From contig JADFXX010000011.1 of NCBI GenBank assembly GCA_015233335.1, forward strand, positions 165 through 64,164: 64,000 bases of DNA, given 5' to 3'. The position numbers and the translations under genes were made by a program. Below, piece by piece: positions 1 to 10,975 of this stretch. Within the stretch, counting starts at the first letter, position 1. Each line of letters starts with the position of its first letter. This stretch comes from Candidatus Omnitrophota bacterium (GTDB lineage: Bacteria > Omnitrophota > Gorgyraeia > Zapsychrales > Fredricksoniimonadaceae). Below the pieces are notes generated by a model, which searched no databases, was not told the origin of the DNA, and saw only the letters and a program-made list of their open reading frames with translations.

Positions 1-37
1 GTTTAGTTAATAACAATCGTAGTGATTATTGATTTTC

Positions 38-160
38 TTAATACTGCATTTGATGCATGCTGCAACAACTACCACCACCTTTTCCCATCATATGAGCAAA
101 GGCAAACCCCGAGACAAATAAAACAACAACTGCTGTAATTATAAAAATACTTTTTACCAT
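38..160 (-). CDS. small secreted Met/His/Cys-rich peptide, 40-aa precursor (predicted mature 18-mer HMMGKGGGSCCSMHQMQY)
   Basis: Shorter in-frame start of track ORF 38..289. The ATG at 160-158 is preceded by AAGGAG with a 6-nt spacer. MVKSIFIITAVVVLFVSGFAFA looks like a Sec signal peptide with an AFA|H site. The tail is rich in soft-metal ligands (Met, His, CC). Last gene of the unit served by the ECF-type promoter at 410..435. Confidence 0.5.
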   Translation of the reverse strand: MVKSIFIITAVVVLFVSGFAFAHMMGKGGGSCCSMHQMQY

Positions 161-176
161 ATAAAACTCCTTTTTG

Positions 177-347
177 TCACCTGTTGACATAGTGACGTAC
201 AACTTTCCCGGTAGGAATAACACTCTGGACAGGCTGCCCCGAATAACCATTATTATGAGTCCAAGAATTTGGTTGAATAGCAAAAGCATTACCGATCAGA
301 CCTACAGTTGCAACGAATGTTAAGACTGACATTGTTTTGTTTTTCAT
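177..347 (-). CDS. small secreted peptide, 56 aa (MKNKTMSVLTFVATVGLIGNAFAIQPNSWTHNNGYSGQPVQSVIPTGKVVRHYVNR)
   Basis: Hand-translated from the minus strand and below the 60-aa track cutoff. ATG at 347-345 is preceded by AAGGA; stop TGA at 179-177. The N-terminus is signal-peptide-like with an AFA|I site. It starts 63 nt downstream of the CGTC element of the promoter at 410..435. Confidence 0.45.
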   Translation of the reverse strand: MKNKTMSVLTFVATVGLIGNAFAIQPNSWTHNNGYSGQPVQSVIPTGKVVRHYVNR

Positions 348-409
348 AAAATCCTTGCTTTGTTTATTGCCCCCCCCATTGGAACCAAATCTGAACCCTC
401 ATAAACAAA

Positions 410-435
410 GACGCTGCCGGCACCAAAAGGTTACG
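410..435 (-). promoter_or_regulatory. ECF-sigma-type promoter P-d (minus strand: CGTAACcttttggtgccggcagCGTCtt)
   Basis: GTAAC (-35-like) and CGTC (-10-like) separated by exactly 16 nt. One of four copies with identical geometry in 0.4-9.1 kb. Located between the stop of 450..1265 and the small ORF at 347. Confidence 0.6.
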
Positions 436-449
436 ATATTTTTTAGAAT

Positions 450-1265
450 TTATTTAAAGGGAAGGGACTTAGGAAGCATGCACGGGCAACCCATGTTACA
501 AACACTATGTGCCTTATGAAGCTGTTGGTCACGCTCATTGCATGTACAAATAGCTTCATCAAGTTTAGATTTCTGGGATTCAGGGACCTTCGCTCTGAGA
601 TCTTGAAGAACATTCTTTTGATAAGCATTTAGAAATTCAAGCTTGGTAAGATAAATCTTCTGTTCGCTAACAGGTAATTTAGCTATGGCATCCAACGATG
701 CTCCTGCTTCATTGAGCATAGCTTTAAGTGTCTGAATATCAATATGGCCATCTTTATTAAACTGATCAACCAGCTCTTTTGAGCGTCTCTCGGAAAATAC
801 TATTTTTAATTCCATCTGACCTTCAGGATTAACGGTCATAAAATATTTGACCTTTTCAGTAAGGAGCTTTACCAGATACAATGGATCCCCCGGAACGCTG
901 CTAGCGGAAACATTGATCGTCCCCCAAGAAATAAAAAAAATAGCCAAAACCACGGCAAACCCCCGCGCCCAAAAGACTGAAGGAAAAAAGAATAAACGAC
1001 TAAGCCTTGCCGAAAACGTGTTCTCCTTCTGCCTTTGTATCTCTTCTCCTACCTTGATCAGACAAGACATGACCTTATGCTCTGAAACCTCTACTGGAGG
1101 GGTATCATTCATCATCTTTGCCACAGACAGAAGTTCTTTTAACTCCTTGGCATGATTAGGATACTGACGAATAACATCTTCCAGAGACATACCCCCGAGC
1201 ATCTTCTCACAGCACTCATCGAATATGTCTTCTATCGGTCTATTATTCTTGTCCATACTAAACAC
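450..1265 (-). CDS. single-pass membrane protein, DUF5667-like; candidate anti-sigma factor
   Basis: 271 aa. About 95-aa cytoplasmic N-terminus, one TM (FAVVLAIFFISWG), then a helical extracytoplasmic domain with a Cys/His-rich tail (CTCNERDQQLHKAHSVCNMGCPC). Lies in the ECF regulon. The family call is from memory of the DUF5667 architecture. Confidence 0.4.
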   Translation of the reverse strand: MFSMDKNNRPIEDIFDECCEKMLGGMSLEDVIRQYPNHAKELKELLSVAKMMNDTPPVEVSEHKVMSCLIKVGEEIQRQKENTFSARLSRLFFFPSVFWARGFAVVLAIFFISWGTINVSASSVPGDPLYLVKLLTEKVKYFMTVNPEGQMELKIVFSERRSKELVDQFNKDGHIDIQTLKAMLNEAGASLDAIAKLPVSEQKIYLTKLEFLNAYQKNVLQDLRAKVPESQKSKLDEAICTCNERDQQLHKAHSVCNMGCPCMLPKSLPFK

Positions 1266-1306
1266 CCTTTTTCAGGCACAACAAAATTTGATCCTTCATA
1301 CATAAA

Positions 1307-1332
1307 GACGACTAACCTTGCTAAAAGTTACG
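1307..1332 (-). promoter_or_regulatory. ECF-sigma-type promoter P-c (minus strand: CGTAACttttagcaaggttagtCGTCtt)
   Basis: Same CGTAAC-N16-CGTC geometry. Lies between the RND pump stop (1337) and the start of 450..1265. Confidence 0.6.
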
Positions 1333-1336
1333 CATA

Positions 1337-4300
1337 CTAATGTTCTTTTAATTCCGGGTAAGGCCGCTTACTTACATCTACTGTACTCTTTCTTATGTCA
1401 CCATCAAAATCTTCAGCCGTTTTCCAAATATAGTATATAGCTGGATATACCAAGAGCTCCATAACAAAACTACTAAAAATACCCCCGATCATAGGTGCTG
1501 CAATCCGTTTCATTACATCTGCCCCGGCTCCAATTGAGAACATAATAGGAACTAGACCCATGAACATAGCGCTGACTGTCATGAGCTTGGGCCGGATACG
1601 TTTAACAGCTCCATGGACAATGGCCTCTTCAAGGTCTGAACGCGTTTTCATCTGTCCTTGACGAATGGCCTGATAATACGCAAGATCCAAGAAGAGCATC
1701 ATAAAAACACCGGTTTCTGCATCAAGCCCCATGAGAGCTATCATCCCTACCCACACAGCAATAGACATGTTATAGCCCAGCAGAAAAAGAAACCACACTG
1801 CCCCAACCAAAGAGAAAGGCACTGCCAACATAACAATCCCCGCCTTGACATGGGAACGGGTATTCATATACAGCAGCATAAATATCAGAAAAAGAGTAAT
1901 AGGAATTACTGTTTTTAACCGCTCTCTGACACGAAGCATATTTTCATATTGCCCGCTCCAAATTAGCGTATATCCGGGTGTGGATTTAAGCTCCTTTTCA
2001 ACCGCACGTTTAGCATCTTCCACAAAGCTGCCCACATCACGGCCAGCAACATCCACATAAACATAACCAGAAAGCATACCATTCTCATTACGGATCATGG
2101 CAGGGCCTTGGACCAATTCCAACTTTGCAAGCTCTCCCAAAGGTACTTGAGCCCCCTGTGGTGTAGCGACAAGGACACGTTTGAGACTTGGTATATCATT
2201 TCGTAACTCACGCAAATAACGGACATTGACTGAATAGCGTTCACGCCCTTCTATGGTCGTCGTCACGGGTTCACCACCTATTGCTGACATTATAACGTCC
2301 TCTACATCGCCAACTGTCAGACCGTAACGAGCCAACGCATCAGAATCAATATCAAAATCAAGAAAATATCCTCCTGTCACACGTTCCGCATAAACACTGC
2401 GTGAACCAGCAACTCCCTTAACAATTTTCTCGATATCCACTCCTATACGTTCAATCTCCTTGTAATCCGCACCCAATATCTTGATTCCAACTGGCGTCCT
2501 CACCCCCGTAGAAAGCATGTCAATACGCGCTTTAATCGGCATGGTCCAGGCATTGGACACACCTGGAAATTTCACCTTCTCGTCAAGTTCATTGATAATA
2601 TCTTGCCATGTGATCCTATCATTCCAAATGGGACGCAATAGCCCTTGTAAAAATTCAGGCATCCATAATGAATACCAGCGATGAACATGACGCCACTGGT
2701 TTTCCGGTTTAAGGACAATCGTTGTTTCCATCATGGAAAATGGCGCCGGATCAGTCGCTGTTTCAGCGCGTCCTGATTTTCCAAACACACGTTCCACTTC
2801 GGGAACAGTCCGGATAACCTTATCCATCTGTTGAAGAAGCTTTTCCGCTTCAGTGACAGAGATTCCCGGCAAGGTCGTGGGCATATATAGAACCGTACCC
2901 TCATTTAATGGAGGCATAAATTCCGACCCCAGTTTAAAATAAATGGGGATCATAGAAAGGAATAGAAGCCCCGCACAAATCAAAGTCTGAATACGGTATT
3001 TAAGGACAAATCTACAGGCTGGTTCGTATATTCTAAACAGGACTTTGCTGATCGGATGCTTCTCTTCGGGGTAATATTTACCCACCGTCAACATATTAAA
3101 CAGGTTTGATATAAACTTGGGACGGAAATTAACCTTATTCACGCGTACCAGAAGCACAAACATAGCCGGAACAAGCGTAATAGCCAAGATGGCAGCAATA
3201 GCCATTGAAAAATTCTTACTGAAAGCCAACGGCCTAAAAAGCCTACCCTCCTGATCTACTAAAGTAAAAACAGGCAAAAACGCCACCGCAATCACAAGGA
3301 GGGAAAAAAAGACTGATGGGCCGACTTCTTTCAGGGACGTTAATAGCACATCATGGTAATCTTCACGACGCCCGTTAGAATCCCATAACTGGATCTTCTT
3401 ATAAGCATTTTCCACCATCACGATAGCTCCATCCACAAGAACACCAATGGAGATGGCGATACCAGCTAGCGACATAATATTGGAAGTCAGCTTCAAAGCT
3501 AACATTGGTATAAATGACAAAAGCACCGCCACAGGAATGGTTGCAATCGGCACACTCGCTGACGGGAAATGCCACAGAAAGAAAATGATCACCAAGCTCA
3601 CGATGATCATTTCTTCGATGAGCTGATGTTTGAGTGTATCAATGGCTCGTAGGATTAGGTCAGAACGGTCATACGTCGTGACTATATCGACACCAGGGGG
3701 AAGCGACGCTTTTACATCTTTCATTTTCTGCTTAACTCTATCAATAACCTGAAGGGCATTCTCCCCCGTACGCATGATGACAATGCCGCCTACAGTATCC
3801 CCTTGGCCATCCAAATCTGCCACGCCTCGACGAATTTCTGGGCCAATGGTGACTTTGGCTAAATTACGCACCAAAACGGGCCTTCCTTGAGTATCCGCCC
3901 CCACCACAATATTTTCTACAGCCTTGGTTGACTTAATATAGCCTCGACCACGAACCATGAACTCGGTGCCCGCGAATTCGACCAAACGTCCACCCACGTC
4001 GTTATTGCTCCTGCGGACAGCATCAATGACCTTATTGATGGGTATATTGTAGGCTTGCAAGGCCACCGGATCGACGTTGACTTGATACTGCTTTTGAAAT
4101 CCACCAACGGTTGCCACTTCTGAAACGCCCGGCACAGACTGTAACCAATAGCGTAAATACCAATCTTGGAACGATCGAAGCTGCCCCAGATCATTTTTAC
4201 CGCTCCGATCCACGAGTGCATATTGATAGACCCAGCCGACAGAAGTTGCGTCCGGTCCTAATTCTGTGCGTACACCTTCAGGCAATCTTGAAATGACCTT

Positions 4301-4642
4301 ATTAAGATATTCGAGCGTACGGCTGCGCGCCCAGTAAAGGTCTGTCCCATCTTTAAAGATGATGTAAACATACGAATATCCAAAATCTGAGAAACCCCGG
4401 ACAGCTTTGACGTTCGGGGCGCCTAACATGGCTGTTACGATCGGATAGGTTACCTGGTCTTCAATAATGTCCGGTGAGCGGTCCCATCTGGAATAAATAA
4501 TAACCTGTGTGTCCGATAGGTCAGGAATAGCATCAAGCGGAATATTGCGCACAGCCATGACAGCTCCGATAATAGCCACTGCCGTCAGAATTAAGATAAG
4601 AAATTTATTCTTTGCTGAGAACTCAATAACCCTTTCAATCAT
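1337..4642 (-). CDS. heavy-metal efflux RND transporter permease, CusA/CzcA family
   Basis: 1101 aa with 12-TM RND architecture. N-terminus MIERVIEFSAKNKFLIL and TM4 motif SIGVLVDGAIVMVEN (HME-RND D-x3-EN type). Translationally coupled to the adaptor gene by a 4-nt overlap. Confidence 0.9.
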   Translation of the reverse strand: MIERVIEFSAKNKFLILILTAVAIIGAVMAVRNIPLDAIPDLSDTQVIIYSRWDRSPDIIEDQVTYPIVTAMLGAPNVKAVRGFSDFGYSYVYIIFKDGTDLYWARSRTLEYLNKVISRLPEGVRTELGPDATSVGWVYQYALVDRSGKNDLGQLRSFQDWYLRYWLQSVPGVSEVATVGGFQKQYQVNVDPVALQAYNIPINKVIDAVRRSNNDVGGRLVEFAGTEFMVRGRGYIKSTKAVENIVVGADTQGRPVLVRNLAKVTIGPEIRRGVADLDGQGDTVGGIVIMRTGENALQVIDRVKQKMKDVKASLPPGVDIVTTYDRSDLILRAIDTLKHQLIEEMIIVSLVIIFFLWHFPSASVPIATIPVAVLLSFIPMLALKLTSNIMSLAGIAISIGVLVDGAIVMVENAYKKIQLWDSNGRREDYHDVLLTSLKEVGPSVFFSLLVIAVAFLPVFTLVDQEGRLFRPLAFSKNFSMAIAAILAITLVPAMFVLLVRVNKVNFRPKFISNLFNMLTVGKYYPEEKHPISKVLFRIYEPACRFVLKYRIQTLICAGLLFLSMIPIYFKLGSEFMPPLNEGTVLYMPTTLPGISVTEAEKLLQQMDKVIRTVPEVERVFGKSGRAETATDPAPFSMMETTIVLKPENQWRHVHRWYSLWMPEFLQGLLRPIWNDRITWQDIINELDEKVKFPGVSNAWTMPIKARIDMLSTGVRTPVGIKILGADYKEIERIGVDIEKIVKGVAGSRSVYAERVTGGYFLDFDIDSDALARYGLTVGDVEDVIMSAIGGEPVTTTIEGRERYSVNVRYLRELRNDIPSLKRVLVATPQGAQVPLGELAKLELVQGPAMIRNENGMLSGYVYVDVAGRDVGSFVEDAKRAVEKELKSTPGYTLIWSGQYENMLRVRERLKTVIPITLFLIFMLLYMNTRSHVKAGIVMLAVPFSLVGAVWFLFLLGYNMSIAVWVGMIALMGLDAETGVFMMLFLDLAYYQAIRQGQMKTRSDLEEAIVHGAVKRIRPKLMTVSAMFMGLVPIMFSIGAGADVMKRIAAPMIGGIFSSFVMELLVYPAIYYIWKTAEDFDGDIRKSTVDVSKRPYPELKEH

Positions 4643-5811
4643 TTACCTGCTCCCTCAAGACGGCTTTCAGCATCAATCAAGAAATTACCACTGACAACAA
4701 CCTTGTCCCCTTCTTGAAGACCGCTCAGGACTTCATAATAACCCCTAGCTTTCGCACCTAACCTCACCTCTTTGACCTCAAAAACATCATCGTGAACGAC
4801 ATGGACGATTTGACGAGTCCCCGAATCTAACACCGCATCTTCCGGTACTGCCAGCTTTTCTCCTAAATCAACATCTATTGTTGCTGAGCCAAATATCTCA
4901 CCACGAAGGATCTTCTCCTTATCATCGACTTTCACCCTGACCCGTATAGTCCGCGATTGTGAATCCAAAACAGGAGCTATACCAGATACTTCTCCATGGA
5001 ACACTTTCCCAGGGAAAGACGGAGATTCAAAAGACACCTTTTGTCCCGGGCGTACCGCAGAAGCCTCATCAGCATAAATAGCCGCATAAATCCATGCTGT
5101 TGGAGATTTGCCCGGATAATACAAACTGTCATCCGCTTGACCGGCCTTGCCTAATTCATCAACTTCAGAATCAGTCATTCCCTGAAGATAGAGTTTTCGA
5201 CGACTTGCCTCCAAAAGAGACTTGGATTGCTCCTTCAAAGATGATTCAGAAATATTTTCAGCAGCCGTTGATGACTTTAACGCTTCAATATACCCAGTCT
5301 GAGCTACATATAAATCAGGGTCAAACGCTACTCTGCCTGATGCGCGAATTTCAAGAATAAGGTCACGCTTCTGAACAATCCCAATCTTCACTCCAATAAG
5401 TTGCTGCTGATTCGGATTCACTTGAACCCCAGACACTTCACTCGCCGTTGAATTCTCCTTTTCATAAACAGGTATATAATCCATCCCCATTGAATCTTTC
5501 ATAAAAGAAGGCGATGTTACTGAAGGGTCCATTGGATTTCTATAATAGAGAATCTTTTTCTCTTTCTTGGGCTGAGAACCCGTCGCAGGCGTCTCTGTAG
5601 CCTTATCTTCGTTCTTAACAAGATTCATCCCACATATGGGACACTCCCCTGGTTTATCTGAAACATAATCCGGGTGCATAGGACAATGATATTTAGCCTT
5701 CTTTACTTGAGAGCTCTGTGACGACTGAGAGGTGCAGTGATAAATATAAAATATGCCCGCTGCCACAGCAATAATTGATAACAAAATTATTATCCAAATG
5801 TTCTTTTTCAT
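4639..5811 (-). CDS. efflux RND periplasmic adaptor (CusB-like) with N-terminal heavy-metal-binding domain
   Basis: 390 aa with a signal anchor. YHCPMHPDYVSDKPGECPICGMNL is a CxxH...CxxC metal-binding module, followed by a barrel-sandwich/beta-barrel MFP region. Confidence 0.85.
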   Translation of the reverse strand: MKKNIWIIILLSIIAVAAGIFYIYHCTSQSSQSSQVKKAKYHCPMHPDYVSDKPGECPICGMNLVKNEDKATETPATGSQPKKEKKILYYRNPMDPSVTSPSFMKDSMGMDYIPVYEKENSTASEVSGVQVNPNQQQLIGVKIGIVQKRDLILEIRASGRVAFDPDLYVAQTGYIEALKSSTAAENISESSLKEQSKSLLEASRRKLYLQGMTDSEVDELGKAGQADDSLYYPGKSPTAWIYAAIYADEASAVRPGQKVSFESPSFPGKVFHGEVSGIAPVLDSQSRTIRVRVKVDDKEKILRGEIFGSATIDVDLGEKLAVPEDAVLDSGTRQIVHVVHDDVFEVKEVRLGAKARGYYEVLSGLQEGDKVVVSGNFLIDAESRLEGAGK

Positions 5812-7064
5812 TTCATCTCTCCCTCGGAATCCATATCGCCCCCAACCACACGTTCCAAATCAGCCTTTGAAACCGCCAATGTGGCTAATGCGTCTGCGTA
5901 TTCCATTTGATAATCACGATACGCCCTAAATGCCCCAATATATTCGCTAAATTCACCTGTACCTGACTCATAAGCGACACGCGCTGTTGTTACCGCAGAC
6001 TTGATACGCGGTAAAATGCCATCTTCATAAAGCCGTACAATATCACCGGAAGCTTTGACTTTTGCCAAGGCGCTTCGTCCTTCAAAAAGGACGGTATTTT
6101 CTTCAGCTTGGTAATCAGCTTGTGCAGCCTTAAACCCTGCGCGAGCTTCTGCAATTTCCGGGCCCTGTTTCCCCCAAAACCACAGTGGTATGGTCAAGCC
6201 GACCGCTCCCATCCATTGTCCCCTGCTAAAATTACCACCCTGATCTTCATGCTTGTACTCCAATCTAATATCAGGCAATAGTTCCTGTTTACTTAAAGAA
6301 TATTCTGTTTTGGCCTTATCCAACATATTTCTAAAAGACTTTAACTCCGGACGATCCTGTCTTATCCTATCAATTATATTCTCTTCAGTAGCATCTTCGT
6401 CTGTTGGCTCCATGTGCATATCAATGTCTGACAAATCCTTAGGTGTCATGTTAAGAATAGATGCTAGTAAACCTTGGGCGATGATGCGGTCTTGTTCAAA
6501 CTGTTTCTGCGCTACCATAGCTTTATCCTGTTCAGCCCCAGCACGCAAAGCATCAACTTGTGAGCCACGACCTGATGAATACCGGGTCTCTGCAGCTTTT
6601 GACATCTGACTGGCCAGAGCAAGACTGCCCTTAGTCAAGGCCAATTTGCGATTAGCCACAAACATTGATGTATAAGCTTCTTTAACCTCTTTAATAACAC
6701 GTTGCTGTGTTTCTCTATATTCCTGCTGAAAAGAATCCATCTCTTGCTTGGCAGCTTTCCTTTTTAAGAAAAGCTTGGTCGGAAAAGGAATCTCCTGCGT
6801 AACTGAAAGGGTTTTCATCGGCTTCCCGTTAGAAGAAGGAGTTAACTTATCGTACCCATACTCAAGCATTGGATCAGGAAGATTACGAAAAAAAGCAACC
6901 CGGGCACGGGCAGCTTCATAGCGGGCATGAGCGGCTAAAATTTGCGGATTCTGAGACAACGCCTGCTGTATCAATTCATGGAGCCCCATATGTTTACCCT
7001 CTTGGGCAAACATAATTGTCGGAACAATAAACAGCATAAATACTAGTGGAATTTTCAAACGCAT
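5808..7064 (-). CDS. TolC-family outer membrane efflux protein (CusC-like)
   Basis: 418 aa with a signal peptide and two repeated helical/beta OMF halves. First gene of the tripartite RND operon. Confidence 0.8.
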   Translation of the reverse strand: MRLKIPLVFMLFIVPTIMFAQEGKHMGLHELIQQALSQNPQILAAHARYEAARARVAFFRNLPDPMLEYGYDKLTPSSNGKPMKTLSVTQEIPFPTKLFLKRKAAKQEMDSFQQEYRETQQRVIKEVKEAYTSMFVANRKLALTKGSLALASQMSKAAETRYSSGRGSQVDALRAGAEQDKAMVAQKQFEQDRIIAQGLLASILNMTPKDLSDIDMHMEPTDEDATEENIIDRIRQDRPELKSFRNMLDKAKTEYSLSKQELLPDIRLEYKHEDQGGNFSRGQWMGAVGLTIPLWFWGKQGPEIAEARAGFKAAQADYQAEENTVLFEGRSALAKVKASGDIVRLYEDGILPRIKSAVTTARVAYESGTGEFSEYIGAFRAYRDYQMEYADALATLAVSKADLERVVGGDMDSEGEMK

Positions 7065-7099
7065 TCCTTCGCTCCTTACAAGATCCCCTTATTCTTAAT

Positions 7100-7125
7100 G
7101 ACGCTCAATAACGTGAAAAGTTACG
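7100..7125 (-). promoter_or_regulatory. ECF-sigma-type promoter P-b (minus strand: CGTAACttttcacgttattgagCGTCat)
   Basis: Same geometry. Sits 8 nt after the sigma-factor stop and 36 nt before the TolC-like start. Confidence 0.6.
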
Positions 7126-7132
7126 ATGTTTT

Positions 7133-7684
7133 TTAAGACCCAAAATCCTTCTTCAGATGTTCTTTTAACCCAGCTACCGCACGAAACTGCAACACTTTCA
7201 CAGCCCCAACAGATTTATTCATAATTTGGGCTGTTTCCTCCAAAGAATGCCCGCTTAAAAATCTTAATGAGATTGCTTCCGCCTGCTCTTCTGTCAAAAC
7301 TTCAAGCATATTTTTTATCTCTTCCTCCGAAAACCCTTTTCTACGATCTTCTGTTGATACCGCGATACTGTCATCCTCCAGTTCATCGAGGGAAGAAGAC
7401 TTCTGACGATCCATTTTCCGGTAATAATCAATAAGCAAGTTACGTGCGATCTTAAACAACCACGCTGGGAAATTACCCGTCTGATTCTTAATGGAACCTA
7501 CCATACGGACAAACACCTCGCTGGTTAAATCCTCTGCATCCTCCTTGTTACGTGCCCGATAAGACAGGAATCGTAACACAGACGGATAGTAATGTTTAAC
7601 CAACTGGCAAATGGAACCCTCGTCCATTTGACGGGCCTGTTCTAAAATATCATCCAAGTCATCTGGATTCTTAAATTCGTCCAT
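7133..7684 (-). CDS. ECF (group IV) RNA polymerase sigma-70 factor
   Basis: 183 aa. Region 2 (LVKHYYPSVLRFLSYRARNKEDAEDLTSEVFVRM) and region 4 HTH (ISLRFLSGHSLEETAQIMNKSVGAVKVLQFRA). Confidence 0.9.
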   Translation of the reverse strand: MDEFKNPDDLDDILEQARQMDEGSICQLVKHYYPSVLRFLSYRARNKEDAEDLTSEVFVRMVGSIKNQTGNFPAWLFKIARNLLIDYYRKMDRQKSSSLDELEDDSIAVSTEDRRKGFSEEEIKNMLEVLTEEQAEAISLRFLSGHSLEETAQIMNKSVGAVKVLQFRAVAGLKEHLKKDFGS

Positions 7685-7700
7685 TACTCAGGAAACCTTT

Positions 7701-8138
7701 CTATTGGCTGACCCCAACCCCATATTCGTAGACCATCTTCCCGCCTTGGTGGGCGGTCAGACCTAGTAAAACAGAAACAGTAGTAAGTAAAATCAAAAAT
7801 ATAATCTGAAAATTTCGAATACCTTTGTAGCGCATAAACCATAGGAAAGGCAGGGCTATCCAAGATAAGCCGGCTGACCAAAAGGCAAACAGTTTATGAG
7901 CATTTAAAACCGGATGATGCAAATGCAACCGATCTACTTCTAACAGTCCTAAAAAGATTACAAGGGGCATAGATAAAACTGCCAATATAAACATAAGCCA
8001 CGCACCTTTACACCAGGAATCTTTCTTAAATAATACTCCTAGCATTTGCATTCCCATAGCGCTGATTATCAACGCTATGGGGAAATGCACAAGCTTTGGA
8101 TGTAATGGATATAAGAATCCTACTAAAGAATTGTCCAT
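7701..8138 (-). CDS. DUF2231-like polytopic membrane protein
   Basis: 145 aa with 4 TM helices. LHPKLVHFPIALII matches the HFPIAL signature I associate with DUF2231. Confidence 0.5.
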   Translation of the reverse strand: MDNSLVGFLYPLHPKLVHFPIALIISAMGMQMLGVLFKKDSWCKGAWLMFILAVLSMPLVIFLGLLEVDRLHLHHPVLNAHKLFAFWSAGLSWIALPFLWFMRYKGIRNFQIIFLILLTTVSVLLGLTAHQGGKMVYEYGVGVSQ

Positions 8139-8150
8139 GCCCCCTCCTGG

Positions 8151-8483
8151 TTATTTATTACCGCTAACCTCTTGATCGGCAATGGCACTGTACTTTTCAG
8201 GATTCTTTTCGAAATCTTTAACACACATGGGACAGCAAAGGTTGTAAATCTTTCCCTTATACATAATCTTAACTGGCCCTCCCATTGGCCCTTTCTCACC
8301 GGGTCCCGGGACCTTCTCACCACTTACAGGACAAGTTTTATTCCCCACCTCTACTGCATTAGCAGTCTGCGTTGTTGAAGTTATTACTTGAACATCTTTT
8401 GTATTCTGGCCTTCTTGGGCTAAAACAAAGCCGCCTGATAAAGCTAAAACAGCTAGTGCTAAGATTAACGATTTGATATTCAT
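8151..8483 (-). CDS. secreted YHS-domain protein (putative periplasmic metal binding)
   Basis: 110 aa with a signal peptide. CPVSGEKV...YKGKIYNLCCPMCVKDFEKNPEKY matches the YHS/TRASH-type pattern. Confidence 0.7.
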   Translation of the reverse strand: MNIKSLILALAVLALSGGFVLAQEGQNTKDVQVITSTTQTANAVEVGNKTCPVSGEKVPGPGEKGPMGGPVKIMYKGKIYNLCCPMCVKDFEKNPEKYSAIADQEVSGNK

Positions 8484-8961: not shown

Positions 8962-9067
8962 ATATTAAATTTTCCCACCATGAACCATTGAAGTCAATAA
9001 TTATGATTTCATCGGCCTTATCAAATTTTTTATACACCGGTATCCAAAATCTATTTTCTTATTTAAA

Positions 9068-9093
9068 GACGACTTAATTTGCTGAAAGTTACG
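9068..9093 (-). promoter_or_regulatory. ECF-sigma-type promoter P-a (minus strand: CGTAACtttcagcaaattaagtCGTCtt)
   Basis: Same CGTAAC-N16-CGTC geometry. Upstream of the 8961->7133 unit that ends with the ECF sigma gene, which is the expected arrangement for autoregulation. Confidence 0.6.
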
Positions 9094-9590: not shown

Positions 9591-10598
9591 CTATTTGACA
9601 CTTAACCGATACCTGACTGCCCGCGCTGCGCCTGTTCTTACAACAAAACCTGAGCTAACAAGAGGTAAAATAAGCTGATTAACTCGAGCCCTATTAATAT
9701 TCATTGCCTTACAAATTTGAGCTGCACCTAAAACACCATGCCTACCGATCAGGACAATTAATTCCTCCTGTTTAGGCGTAAGGGTGGTCTGAGTAAGCTT
9801 TAAAGAGCCTTCTTTAATGCGACTCTGGACAATGTCAGCAGAGCTCCTCAACCCTTCAGCGACATATTCTACCCAATGAGTATAGTCACCGTCCATATCA
9901 CGCGTTTGCTGGATCATATTGTAATAACGCGCTCTATCTTGGGCAAGGAAATCATCAAGACCTAAAGTCACCAAAGGATCTATCTCTCTTTCCCACAAGA
10001 GCCATTGTGCCATAGCTCTGGCAACTCTCCCATTACCATCAACAAAAGGATGAATTGTCAGAAATTCATGGTGAAATATCGCGCTGCGAACTATCGGATG
10101 CTGATCATTGTCCTTCAGCCACGAAAAGAGATCTTTCATTCGTCCATTCACTTTGGCTGGTGCTGGAGGAGTAAATATCACTCTTTTACGCGCATCAACA
10201 ACATAATTCTGGACGATTCGATACTTCCCTGATCTTGCCGTGGAAAGCAACCCTTTGATCATCAGCGCATGTACTTCCAATAAGTCTTTTTCGGTGGCAA
10301 TCTTATTTTTATTTTTAAGTATCGAACGCATAGCCGCAATACAATTAGACACCTCAATCTTCTGATTTTTCTCAACAAGAACATCCTGACCTTCCGACAC
10401 TGCTCTAACCTGTGCTAAAGACAACAGATTTCCCTCGATCCATGTCGAAGAATGTACGCTCCTTGCAAATGCATCCTTCTCAAGAGGGATCTTTAAAACT
10501 TCCTGAAGACGCGCCCCGTTGATGAGGGCCGTTACGGAAGCAATGCCTTCAAATAATTTAATTAAATGTGAAGTTATACGAAGCTCTGGCTTAAACAT
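9591..10598 (-). CDS. Fic family protein (AMPylase-type) with C-terminal winged-helix domain
   Basis: 335 aa with the canonical Fic motif HPFVDGNGRVARAM. The C-terminal ~70 aa are wHTH-like. Confidence 0.85.
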   Translation of the reverse strand: MFKPELRITSHLIKLFEGIASVTALINGARLQEVLKIPLEKDAFARSVHSSTWIEGNLLSLAQVRAVSEGQDVLVEKNQKIEVSNCIAAMRSILKNKNKIATEKDLLEVHALMIKGLLSTARSGKYRIVQNYVVDARKRVIFTPPAPAKVNGRMKDLFSWLKDNDQHPIVRSAIFHHEFLTIHPFVDGNGRVARAMAQWLLWEREIDPLVTLGLDDFLAQDRARYYNMIQQTRDMDGDYTHWVEYVAEGLRSSADIVQSRIKEGSLKLTQTTLTPKQEELIVLIGRHGVLGAAQICKAMNINRARVNQLILPLVSSGFVVRTGAARAVRYRLSVK

Positions 10599-10696
10599 AA
10601 ACCAAGCATATCATATCGTATAGATATTGTATAGGGAATTGTCTAGGATGGAAGAATAAAACAACAGGGATGACAACCTTATAAAAGGTTATAAAA

Positions 10697-10773
10697 TGGG
10701 GTGAGTGACGGGATTTGAACCCGCGACCTCAAGAGCCACATTCTTGCGCTCTGCCAACTGAGCTACACCCACC
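10697..10773 (-). tRNA. tRNA-His (GUG)
   Basis: Cloverleaf folded by hand. Anticodon arm CAAGA/ATGTGGC/TCTTG gives GTG. G-1 is encoded and pairs with C73. 3' CCA is encoded. 77 nt. Confidence 0.9.
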
Positions 10774-10830
10774 ATAAAAGGGAGGTATTACAATAACAAA
10801 AAATCTTTACAAAAACTATAAAAAAAACAA

Positions 10831-10905
10831 CGTCCCTGGCAGGAATCGAACCTGCGACCCACAGCTTAGAAGGCTGTTGCTCTAATCCAACTGAGCTACA
10901 GGGAC
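10831..10905 (-). tRNA. tRNA-Arg (UCU)
   Basis: Cloverleaf folded by hand. Acceptor GTCCCTG/CAGGGAC. Anticodon arm ACAGC/CTTCTAA/GCTGT gives TCT. CCA is not encoded. 75 nt. Confidence 0.9.
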
Positions 10906-10975
10906 ACAATAAATATTCCCCATTAAAAGGCAAGTACAAGTTTATATCAGATTTCTCGACAGCTGTCCAGTTTCT

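Follow-up and report, generated by a model that had tools for sequence, protein, structure and literature searches.

The stretch of DNA analysed here (the window; 64,000 nucleotides of a contig from a Candidatus Omnitrophota bacterium) carries in its first 9.1 kb a single metal-resistance locus with genes for a CusCBA efflux pump, an extracytoplasmic function (ECF) sigma factor and a DUF5667 membrane protein. The minus strand is the coding strand for all features of this locus (Table 1). At its end lie two very short open reading frames, ORF1 (56 codons) and ORF2 (40 codons); the window stops 37 nt past ORF2, and the next gene falls outside. An earlier note, made from the sequence alone, had read both as genes for secreted peptides with good ribosome-binding sites behind an ECF-type promoter, and indeed both follow a promoter motif at 407..435 and have Shine-Dalgarno (SD) sequences, AAGGA 4 nt and AAGGAG 6 nt before their start codons. 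Its overall interpretation turned out to be half right: ORF2 as a gene and its copper context stood, while ORF1 as a peptide gene, the weight placed on an N-terminal His, a sensor role and the conservation of the two ORFs as a pair did not.

ORF2 and the truncated gene beside it

ORF2 encodes the pre-peptide MVKSIFIITAVVVLFVSGFAFA/HMMGKGGGSCCSMHQMQY (slashes mark predicted cleavage sites). A word-indexed search gave one relative, 93% identical and called as a protein of 53 amino acids; an exhaustive HMMER search of 1.84 billion representatives added six more at 57-71% identity, five of them 37-41 residues long and one of 85. ORF2 and these seven relatives (P0001 and P0019-P0024) make up the family studied here, and the metagenome contigs with related loci are labelled L001-L028. 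The eight sequences align as M-x-K-s-I-x-V-I-T-A-V-x-V-L-f-V-S-G-x-A-F-A / [HKRN]-M-m-G-x-G-G-S-C-C-x-x-H-x-x-Q, with a conserved core, M-G-x-G-G-S-C-C-x-x-H, in a tail of 15-19 residues. Strictly invariant in the tail are only two Gly, one Cys and the distal His. The first tail position, whose His the earlier note had emphasised, is variously His, Lys, Arg or Asn. The 18-residue tail of ORF2 itself is rich in Met, His and Cys, as had been described: by count it holds three Met, two His and a Cys-Cys pair. Proline is absent from all eight sequences.

Across six independent DNA copies, most differences fall at third codon positions (e.g. 7/7/21), the ratio of nonsynonymous to synonymous substitution rates (dN/dS) is 0.09-0.59, and differences in length are in-frame codon insertions or deletions. 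Every family member keeps an SD sequence (AAGGAG, GGAGG) and the ATG at the 40-residue start. Judged by this conservation, ORF2 is a genuine gene and a member of a new, rare micro-protein family. That the 83-residue ORF annotated at 289..38 is the real gene, or that ORF2 is a chance reading frame, is scarcely credible. The longer frame is the longest open one and was the original track call, and a 53-residue extended version is called in JGI data; however, its ATG at 289 lies inside ORF1 and has no SD, its extension is of entirely different sequence in L001 and runs into stops in L021, L023 and L024, where the frames span 42-45 codons from stop to stop, and the coding signature begins at the conserved 40-residue start. 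The earlier objection to this frame, that it lacks a ribosome-binding site and overlaps ORF1, is thus borne out.

The peptide had no match in Pfam (none at E<=1) or NCBIfam, and neither it nor the Met-rich protein encoded beside it in other loci (see below) had a tblastn match among 72,556 plasmids. Searches of the literature on Omnitrophica copper small proteins and on the peptide sequence motifs returned nothing relevant. The family was previously unannotated; its sequence is unrelated to those of known small envelope copper proteins, with which it would share a functional kind.

The inverted repeat just downstream of ORF2 is partly conserved (…AACAATCACTATGGTTGTTATTAA…) before the next gene, at ~7395..7420 in L021 and ~735..760 in L025, with the consensus AA(T/C)AATC-N5/6-G(A/G)TTGTT. 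Base pairing survives both substitutions by which L021 differs from the window (one changes U·G to C-G, the other U-A to U·G). No T-run follows the repeat, and in the relatives it does not overlap the SD of the next gene.

ORF1 (MKNKTMSVLTFVATVGLIGNAFA/IQPNSW...RHYVNR) has a different standing. Its counterpart in L001, a contig about 90% identical to the window (L002 is a second copy), is a gene for a 199-residue secreted protein that matches ORF1 over its first 50 residues with 84% identity (43/51 residues the same). BLASTN aligned window positions 1332..202 with L001 196..1326, and 172..4 with L001 1835..1998, at ~90% identity; the 29 nt between the two blocks fit L001 1806-1834 by eye. Some 482 nt of L001 are missing from the window, with a GT microhomology at the junction (~201/202), and ORF1 is made up of the first 50 codons of a ~200-residue gene followed by six frameshifted codons (RHYVNR-stop). 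The L001 protein consists of two copies of one domain. A single copy is found in a 123-residue secreted protein of L004 (E 2e-18), encoded after the orthologous DUF5667 gene, and L026 carries a 206-residue orthologue with the same signal peptide; because of these two homologues we take the full-length form to be the older state.

On these alignments ORF1 is the 5' stump of a gene for a ~200-residue secreted two-domain protein, cut by a ~482-nt deletion, and its product is a deletion accident and no conserved peptide, still less the dedicated 33-mer that had been proposed. The deletion incidentally brought ORF2 next to the promoter; in related loci the two small ORFs are not conserved as a pair. 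The stump has a dN/dS of 0.16 against 0.10 for the neighbouring anti-sigma gene, values that are indistinguishable with so few sites, so the deletion is probably recent; relaxed selection visible on the stump was rejected on the same figures. Promoter, SD and signal peptide are still present, and the 33-residue fragment may be made. The deletion may also be an assembly artefact. A word-indexed search with ORF1 gave no homologue, its identity coming from the reading of L001 alone, and exact-sequence look-ups of ORF1, the 83-residue ORF and the window anti-sigma protein gave no match. The 199-residue protein belongs to no Pfam or NCBIfam family, the sole hint being a weak OB-fold match ('stress_OB_fold', E 0.006).

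Gene neighbourhoods and promoters

The peptide gene was found in several arrangements. In L001 and L002 an ECF-type promoter is followed by genes for the 199-residue protein, the peptide, a secreted YHS protein and a cation diffusion facilitator (CDF) transporter. In L021, genes for a multicopper oxidase, a YHS protein and a DUF2231 protein precede a series of merR, peptide gene, Met-rich secreted protein gene and HMBD P1B ATPase gene. Five contigs (L023, L025, L026, L027 and L028) share the order MerR, a 77-residue two-helix protein ending FMMMRKGGGCCGGH…, peptide, Met-rich secreted protein of ~135-140 residues, and YHS+HMBD P1B ATPase; L024 has a DUF5676 protein, the peptide and the Met-rich protein. 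At L022 (123..380) the peptide frame reads into an HMBD mini-gene, giving the 85-residue fusion P0020 (CPMHPEVKSNEPGKCPKCGM). The peptide stop is lost there and the 35-residue mini-gene retains its own AAGGAGG and ATG; the contig has 753 nt, and the fusion is either natural or due to a sequencing error.

In every context seen, all of them in uncultivated bacteria, the family is associated with genes of the Cu(I)/Ag(I) type. The best solved relative of the window CusA is E. coli CusA (1009 bits, against 494 for ZneA), and the Cu(I)/Ag(I) Met triad M573/M623/M672 is kept, as counted along the printed alignment; by these marks the pump is of the true CusA type. Together with the P1B ATPases, MerR regulators, YHS proteins and the HMBD fusion, this upholds the link of ORF2 to such genes that the earlier note had drawn. 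A search of the window found neither the Met-rich protein nor a P-type ATPase encoded elsewhere in it.

The Met-rich secreted protein (~130-140 residues; L021 7435..7824, L024 660..1064, L026 8186..8608, L018 6892..7281) has an (M/G)-rich N-terminal region, MMDGKGGMMGNGMMM…, and a core MVAT-DGGV-V…G-KLIKYD--LN-VK. It is always upstream of a copper P1B ATPase and had no Pfam or NCBIfam match. The two-helix protein between merR and the peptide gene (76-80 residues; L023 480..710, L025 288..524, L026 7732..7965, L015 3293..3535) carries MM-CC near its N terminus and ends FMMMRKGGGCCGGH…GCH; it, too, belongs to no Pfam or NCBIfam family.

The promoter motif ahead of the small ORFs is one of a set. 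The pattern CGTAACY-N13-17-CGTC occurs four times in the 64 kb, compared with a mean of 0.06 in dinucleotide shuffles, and 0/100 shuffles reached four. The metal locus holds all four, each on the minus strand in a gap between genes (ends 435, 1332, 7125 and 9093), and they head ORF1, the DUF5667 gene, cusC and the gene for a 127-residue protein whose operon includes the sigma gene. Related contigs have the motif at orthologous positions (20 non-redundant instances, none of them off the coding strand), and L001, L002 and L003 have it at the same position as 407..435. AAC in the -35 element and CGT(C) in the -10 element are thus common to the sigma factor's own operon and the other copies, an architecture that is the hallmark of ECF promoters. 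Because of this architecture and the adjacent ECF sigma gene, we infer on good grounds that the motif at 407..435 functions as an ECF promoter and that the small ORFs are under ECF control, as had been supposed. A scan for sigma-70 promoters and terminators gave nothing exceeding shuffles, and Rfam gave only sub-threshold chance matches on window 1..1500. A well-defined ECF-type promoter motif is hereby documented for an Omnitrophota copper regulon.

The arrangement recalls the CnrYXH system of Cupriavidus, which likewise combines an ECF sigma factor, a membrane anti-sigma protein, a resistance-nodulation-division (RND) pump and several sigma-dependent promoters in one locus; in contrast, a DUF5667 protein with its Cys-rich tail here takes the place of CnrY/CnrX as anti-sigma candidate, and the pump is CusA-type. 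The peptide gene itself stands under two types of regulator, ECF in the window and MerR elsewhere. The family also occurs in MerR-controlled operons without an ECF/anti-sigma pair, which speaks against the peptide as the ECF system's sensor and leaves the earlier suggestion of a sensor role unsupported; the DUF5667 protein, with its conserved Cys-rich tail, is the better sensor candidate.

Homologues of the DUF5667 protein (17, at 60-100% identity, from Omnitrophota metagenome-assembled genomes) are always encoded beside a cusCBA/ECF sigma pair. They have a conserved cytoplasmic N terminus (IEDIF-EC-EK), one transmembrane helix and a periplasmic Cys-rich tail (AIC-C-N…C-M…GCPC), and the protein is probably a novel metal-sensing anti-sigma factor. 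A genome scan with the single anti-sigma sequence found no relative; scans based on an alignment did. We found no literature on DUF5667 as an anti-sigma factor. The 5' leader behind the promoter (371..405, minus strand; …GGTTCAGATTTGGTTCCAATGGGGGG…) is conserved even though the first gene after it differs: its equivalents lie at 1125..1150 in L001, before the 199-residue gene, and at ~925..950 in L005, and in L003 and L005 a YHS gene follows.

Proposed export and possible roles of the ORF2 tail

The first 22 residues of ORF2 have the parts of a Sec signal: an MVK n-region, a hydrophobic core of 12 residues (IFIITAVVVLFV) and SGFAFA/H, with Ser-Gly at -6/-5 and Ala-x-Ala at -3/-1. By inspection, a Lys/Arg n-region, a core within 7-15 residues and small residues at -3/-1 agree with signal peptidase I substrates, and Ala-x-Ala is present in 7/8 family members. 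A hidden Markov model of the eight peptides matched residues 1-28 of adjacent Met-rich proteins at 39.6, 23.7 and 19.8 bits; in the best match MKKSIAVITGVIVLTVSGLAFA/QMNDKGK is aligned with M-KSI-VITAV-VLFVSGFAFA/HMMG. Since the Met-rich domain must be outside the cytoplasm to function, the segment common to both is a working secretion signal. Other secreted proteins of the locus have similar signal ends (LALA/Q, NAFA/V). The Ala-x-Ala is likely to be a signal-peptidase site, and we infer that the peptide is exported and cleaved. The short frames of the relatives and this shared signal agree with the former description of ORF2 as a real short gene of secreted type.

The reverse topology, in which an uncleaved anchor would hold the Cys-Cys/His tail in the cytoplasm, tethered there to donate Cu(I) to the P1B ATPase in the manner of CopZ, appears distinctly improbable. 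Cu(I) sites with Cys ligands typify the cytoplasm, Lys or Arg stands right behind the helix in several tails, and a related motif, MMMRKGGGCCGG, in the 77-residue neighbour precedes a Lys-rich, probably cytoplasmic tail. On the other hand, the N-terminal Lys/Arg is typical of an n-region, the N terminus is homologous to a bona fide secretion signal with Ala-x-Ala in nearly all members, and the HMBD of P0020 has the periplasmic position that it has in CusB, behind a membrane anchor. The tail bears a weak resemblance to the neighbour's MMMRKGGGCC motif (E 0.13); as a speculation, the peptide could be a chimera of the signal of the Met-rich protein and the MMM-K/R-GGG-CC motif of the 77-residue protein.

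In size, single hydrophobic helix, probable induction by stress and position beside a transporter or sensor, the peptide is similar to AcrZ, MgrB and KdpF. AcrZ pairs with AcrB, KdpF with KdpABC and MgrB with PhoQ, and MgrB has functional periplasmic cysteines. The ORF2 product could by analogy be an uncleaved single-pass membrane peptide that joins the P1B ATPase, CusA or the DUF5667 anti-sigma protein as an accessory or regulatory subunit, with the Cys/Met/His tail forming a local metal site or a redox-sensitive contact. Lengths of 37-41 residues with one hydrophobic helix are typical of such proteins; the promoter motif suggests induction with a stress regulon; a membrane transporter is encoded within a few genes of the peptide except in L024; P0023 lacks a good -1 residue; and the anti-sigma protein likewise has a Cys-rich periplasmic tail. 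We nevertheless consider such a subunit unlikely. The Met-rich protein, which must be cleaved, shares the hydrophobic core of only ~12 residues with Ser-Gly and Ala-x-Ala behind it, and the tail is at least as conserved as the helix residues. Moreover, there is no constant partner gene (the RND pump in the window, CDF in L001 and L002, the ATPase in L021 and L026, and neither within reach in L024), and no sequence similarity to AcrZ, MgrB or KdpF.

Other identities were rejected: a precursor of a ribosomally synthesized and post-translationally modified peptide (no maturation genes are present), a lipoprotein (no lipobox Cys) and an AcrZ-like partner specific to CusA (the peptide is also found without an adjacent RND pump).

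The explanation that we favour, and to which we give an even chance, is that ORF2 encodes an exported, probably cleaved, soft-metal-binding tail that buffers or relays Cu(I)/Ag(I) in the envelope. The Sec-type signal would carry the tail of 15-19 residues over the inner membrane, where signal peptidase I would free it unless it stayed tethered. Once in the periplasm, the tail would offer Met thioethers, Cys thiolates and His imidazoles as ligands to Cu(I)/Ag(I), as a cheap, stress-induced buffer or hand-off element beside the Met-rich protein, YHS proteins, P1B ATPase and CusCBA. The window copy would be transcribed from one of the four ECF-sigma-type promoters, and the copies in other genomes from MerR-headed operons. 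Metal binding is suggested by the composition of the tail, the conservation of its Cys, His and Met residues, the HMBD fusion and the gene context, in which CusB bears an HMBD and YHS and DUF2231 proteins are encoded. Periplasmic thiolate sites are normal in this locus, since the secreted YHS protein has the Cys pair NLCCPMC.

Known small envelope copper proteins (CusF, CopC/PcoC, PcoE/SilE, CopK) are, as predicted for the peptide, Sec-secreted, rich in Met and His, encoded in copper/silver efflux loci and co-induced with the pump. In contrast, the peptide shows no sequence relationship to CusF (PF11604), CopC or PcoE/SilE and matches no Pfam or NCBIfam profile, and whereas CusF/CopC-type proteins have ~70-120 residues and no vicinal Cys pair, the mature part of 15-19 residues is too short to fold. 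The methanobactin precursor MbnA resembles the peptide in its ~30-40 residues and its Cys-rich C-terminal core implicated in copper binding, but MbnA has a non-hydrophobic leader and needs MbnB and MbnC, while the leader of the peptide is a hydrophobic Sec signal; the gene lists of the window, L001, L021 and L026 contain no MbnB or MbnC genes. More boldly, and with rather little confidence, the family might be the smallest known class of ribosomal, unmodified, Sec-exported copper ligands, an enzyme-free 'mini-chalkophore'. A free peptide of 15-19 residues, periplasmic or leaked outside, would then scavenge Cu(I)/Ag(I) stoichiometrically, or alternatively relay it from the exit of the P1B ATPase to the Met-rich protein and CusCBA.

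Several observations weigh against an exported copper ligand. P0023 has Phe at -1 (GFALF/H), and the near-symmetric charges around the helix make an uncleaved or inverted, tail-in topology possible. P0024 carries a single Cys. Periplasmic Cu(I) sites in CusF, CopC and CusB use Met, His and Trp, Cys-Cys being more typical of the cytoplasm. The CDF transporter near the peptide in L001 and L002 would also fit Zn/Cd, and the metal specificity is assigned through guilt by association. The family is rare: it has ~10 sequences among 15 billion, every one of them from a metagenome and either labelled 'hypothetical' or unnamed. Finally, in the close relatives L003 and L005 the promoter and 5' leader run into the YHS gene with neither the 199-residue gene nor the peptide gene between them; the peptide is therefore dispensable and the module accessory.

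The position of the gene also calls to mind cis-acting exported leader ORFs of the CutF/CopL/CruR kind, in which copper bound by the growing, partly exported chain would affect how the ribosome proceeds at the end of the small ORF, and hence the translation of the next gene. These leaders have a Sec signal and a Cys/His motif and lie directly upstream of copper-homeostasis genes with short spacers (PMC9973294). The filter used for CutF-like (DUF2946-like) leaders in that study included an N-terminal signal, a Cys/His motif and a length below 150 residues, and the peptide has a signal (by inspection and by homology to that of the Met-rich protein), the motif S-C-C-x-x-H and 37-41 residues. A gene for a secreted metal protein follows the peptide gene at a distance of 42-75 nt in all relatives, and the short inverted repeat is partly conserved in the spacer. 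However, the peptide has no C-terminal Pro-rich or other stalling motif, indeed no proline at all, is ~40 residues long instead of ~100-150, and has no DUF2946 match. With 37-41 codons, and judged by the length of the ribosomal tunnel, the signal would barely have emerged at termination, too late to engage the translocon, so that co-translational periplasmic sensing is physically implausible. In R. capsulatus an intergenic stem-loop shields the downstream SD (PMC9973294); single-sequence folds of eight spacers showed no common helix covering it, the window itself ending before the next gene. The downstream gene varies by locus (Met-rich protein, YHS protein, HMBD), and a separate CutF-like gene is apparently present in the window locus, that of the 127-residue protein. 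We regard a leader function as a long shot.

To our knowledge, very few proteins of <50 residues have been linked to metal homeostasis. If the favoured explanation is true, bacteria can use unfolded, enzyme-free peptide ligands in the envelope; the family would add a part to the CusCBA/CopA/MerR/ECF toolkit and offer chemistry and biosensing a minimal natural Cu(I)-binding sequence. Micro-proteins below 50 residues are systematically missed or mis-called, as here, where the gene was annotated as an 83-residue ORF; the annotation of both ORFs is herewith corrected.

Other features of the locus

Table 1. Features of the metal-resistance locus, in window coordinates
Feature	Position	Strand	Remarks
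Cys/His-rich secreted protein, 127 aa	8578..8961	-	own promoter motif 9065..9093
Secreted YHS-domain protein	8151..8483	-	vicinal Cys pair
DUF2231 membrane protein	7701..8138	-	domain scan
ECF sigma factor gene	7133..7684	-	Sigma70_r2/r4/ECF; TIGR02937 95 bits
cusC	5808..7064	-	ECF-type promoter at 7097..7125
cusB with N-terminal HMBD	4639..5811	-	
cusA	1337..4642	-	
DUF5667 membrane protein, Cys-rich periplasmic C terminus	450..1256	-	PF18915, E 3.7e-7; own ECF-type promoter 1304..1332
ECF-type promoter motif ahead of the small ORFs	407..435	-	CGTAACCTTTT-N15-CGTCTTT
ORF1, 56 aa, truncated gene remnant	177..347 (347->177)	-	AAGGA at 356..352; deletion junction ~201/202
ORF2 Shine-Dalgarno AAGGAG	167..172	-	6 nt before ATG
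ORF2, 40-aa pre-peptide	38..160 (160->38)	-	signal codons 1-22 = 160..95; tail HMMGKGGGSCCSMHQMQY = 94..41; stop 40..38
Inverted repeat/hairpin AAUAAUC-ACUAC-GAUUGUU	12..30	-	just downstream of ORF2

The 127-residue protein at the head of the sigma operon contains CSC and HFCNC motifs, ends …GPPLGILSEVPLYIQQHSLRI and has a weak DUF2946 match (E 0.04). Its homologues end …GPPG…PLY-Q-HSLRI and precede an outer membrane efflux protein gene in L021 and cusB in L026. By these features it resembles an exported leader protein of the CutF/CopL/CusD kind that belongs to the locus itself (cf. PMC9973294). Just upstream of the metal locus (region 9591..10906, minus strand) are genes for tRNA-His (10697..10772) and tRNA-Arg (10830..10906), and near both of them a 335-residue ORF (9591..10598, minus strand) that is Fic/DOC-like by eye. 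The copper locus may be an island inserted beside the tRNA genes.

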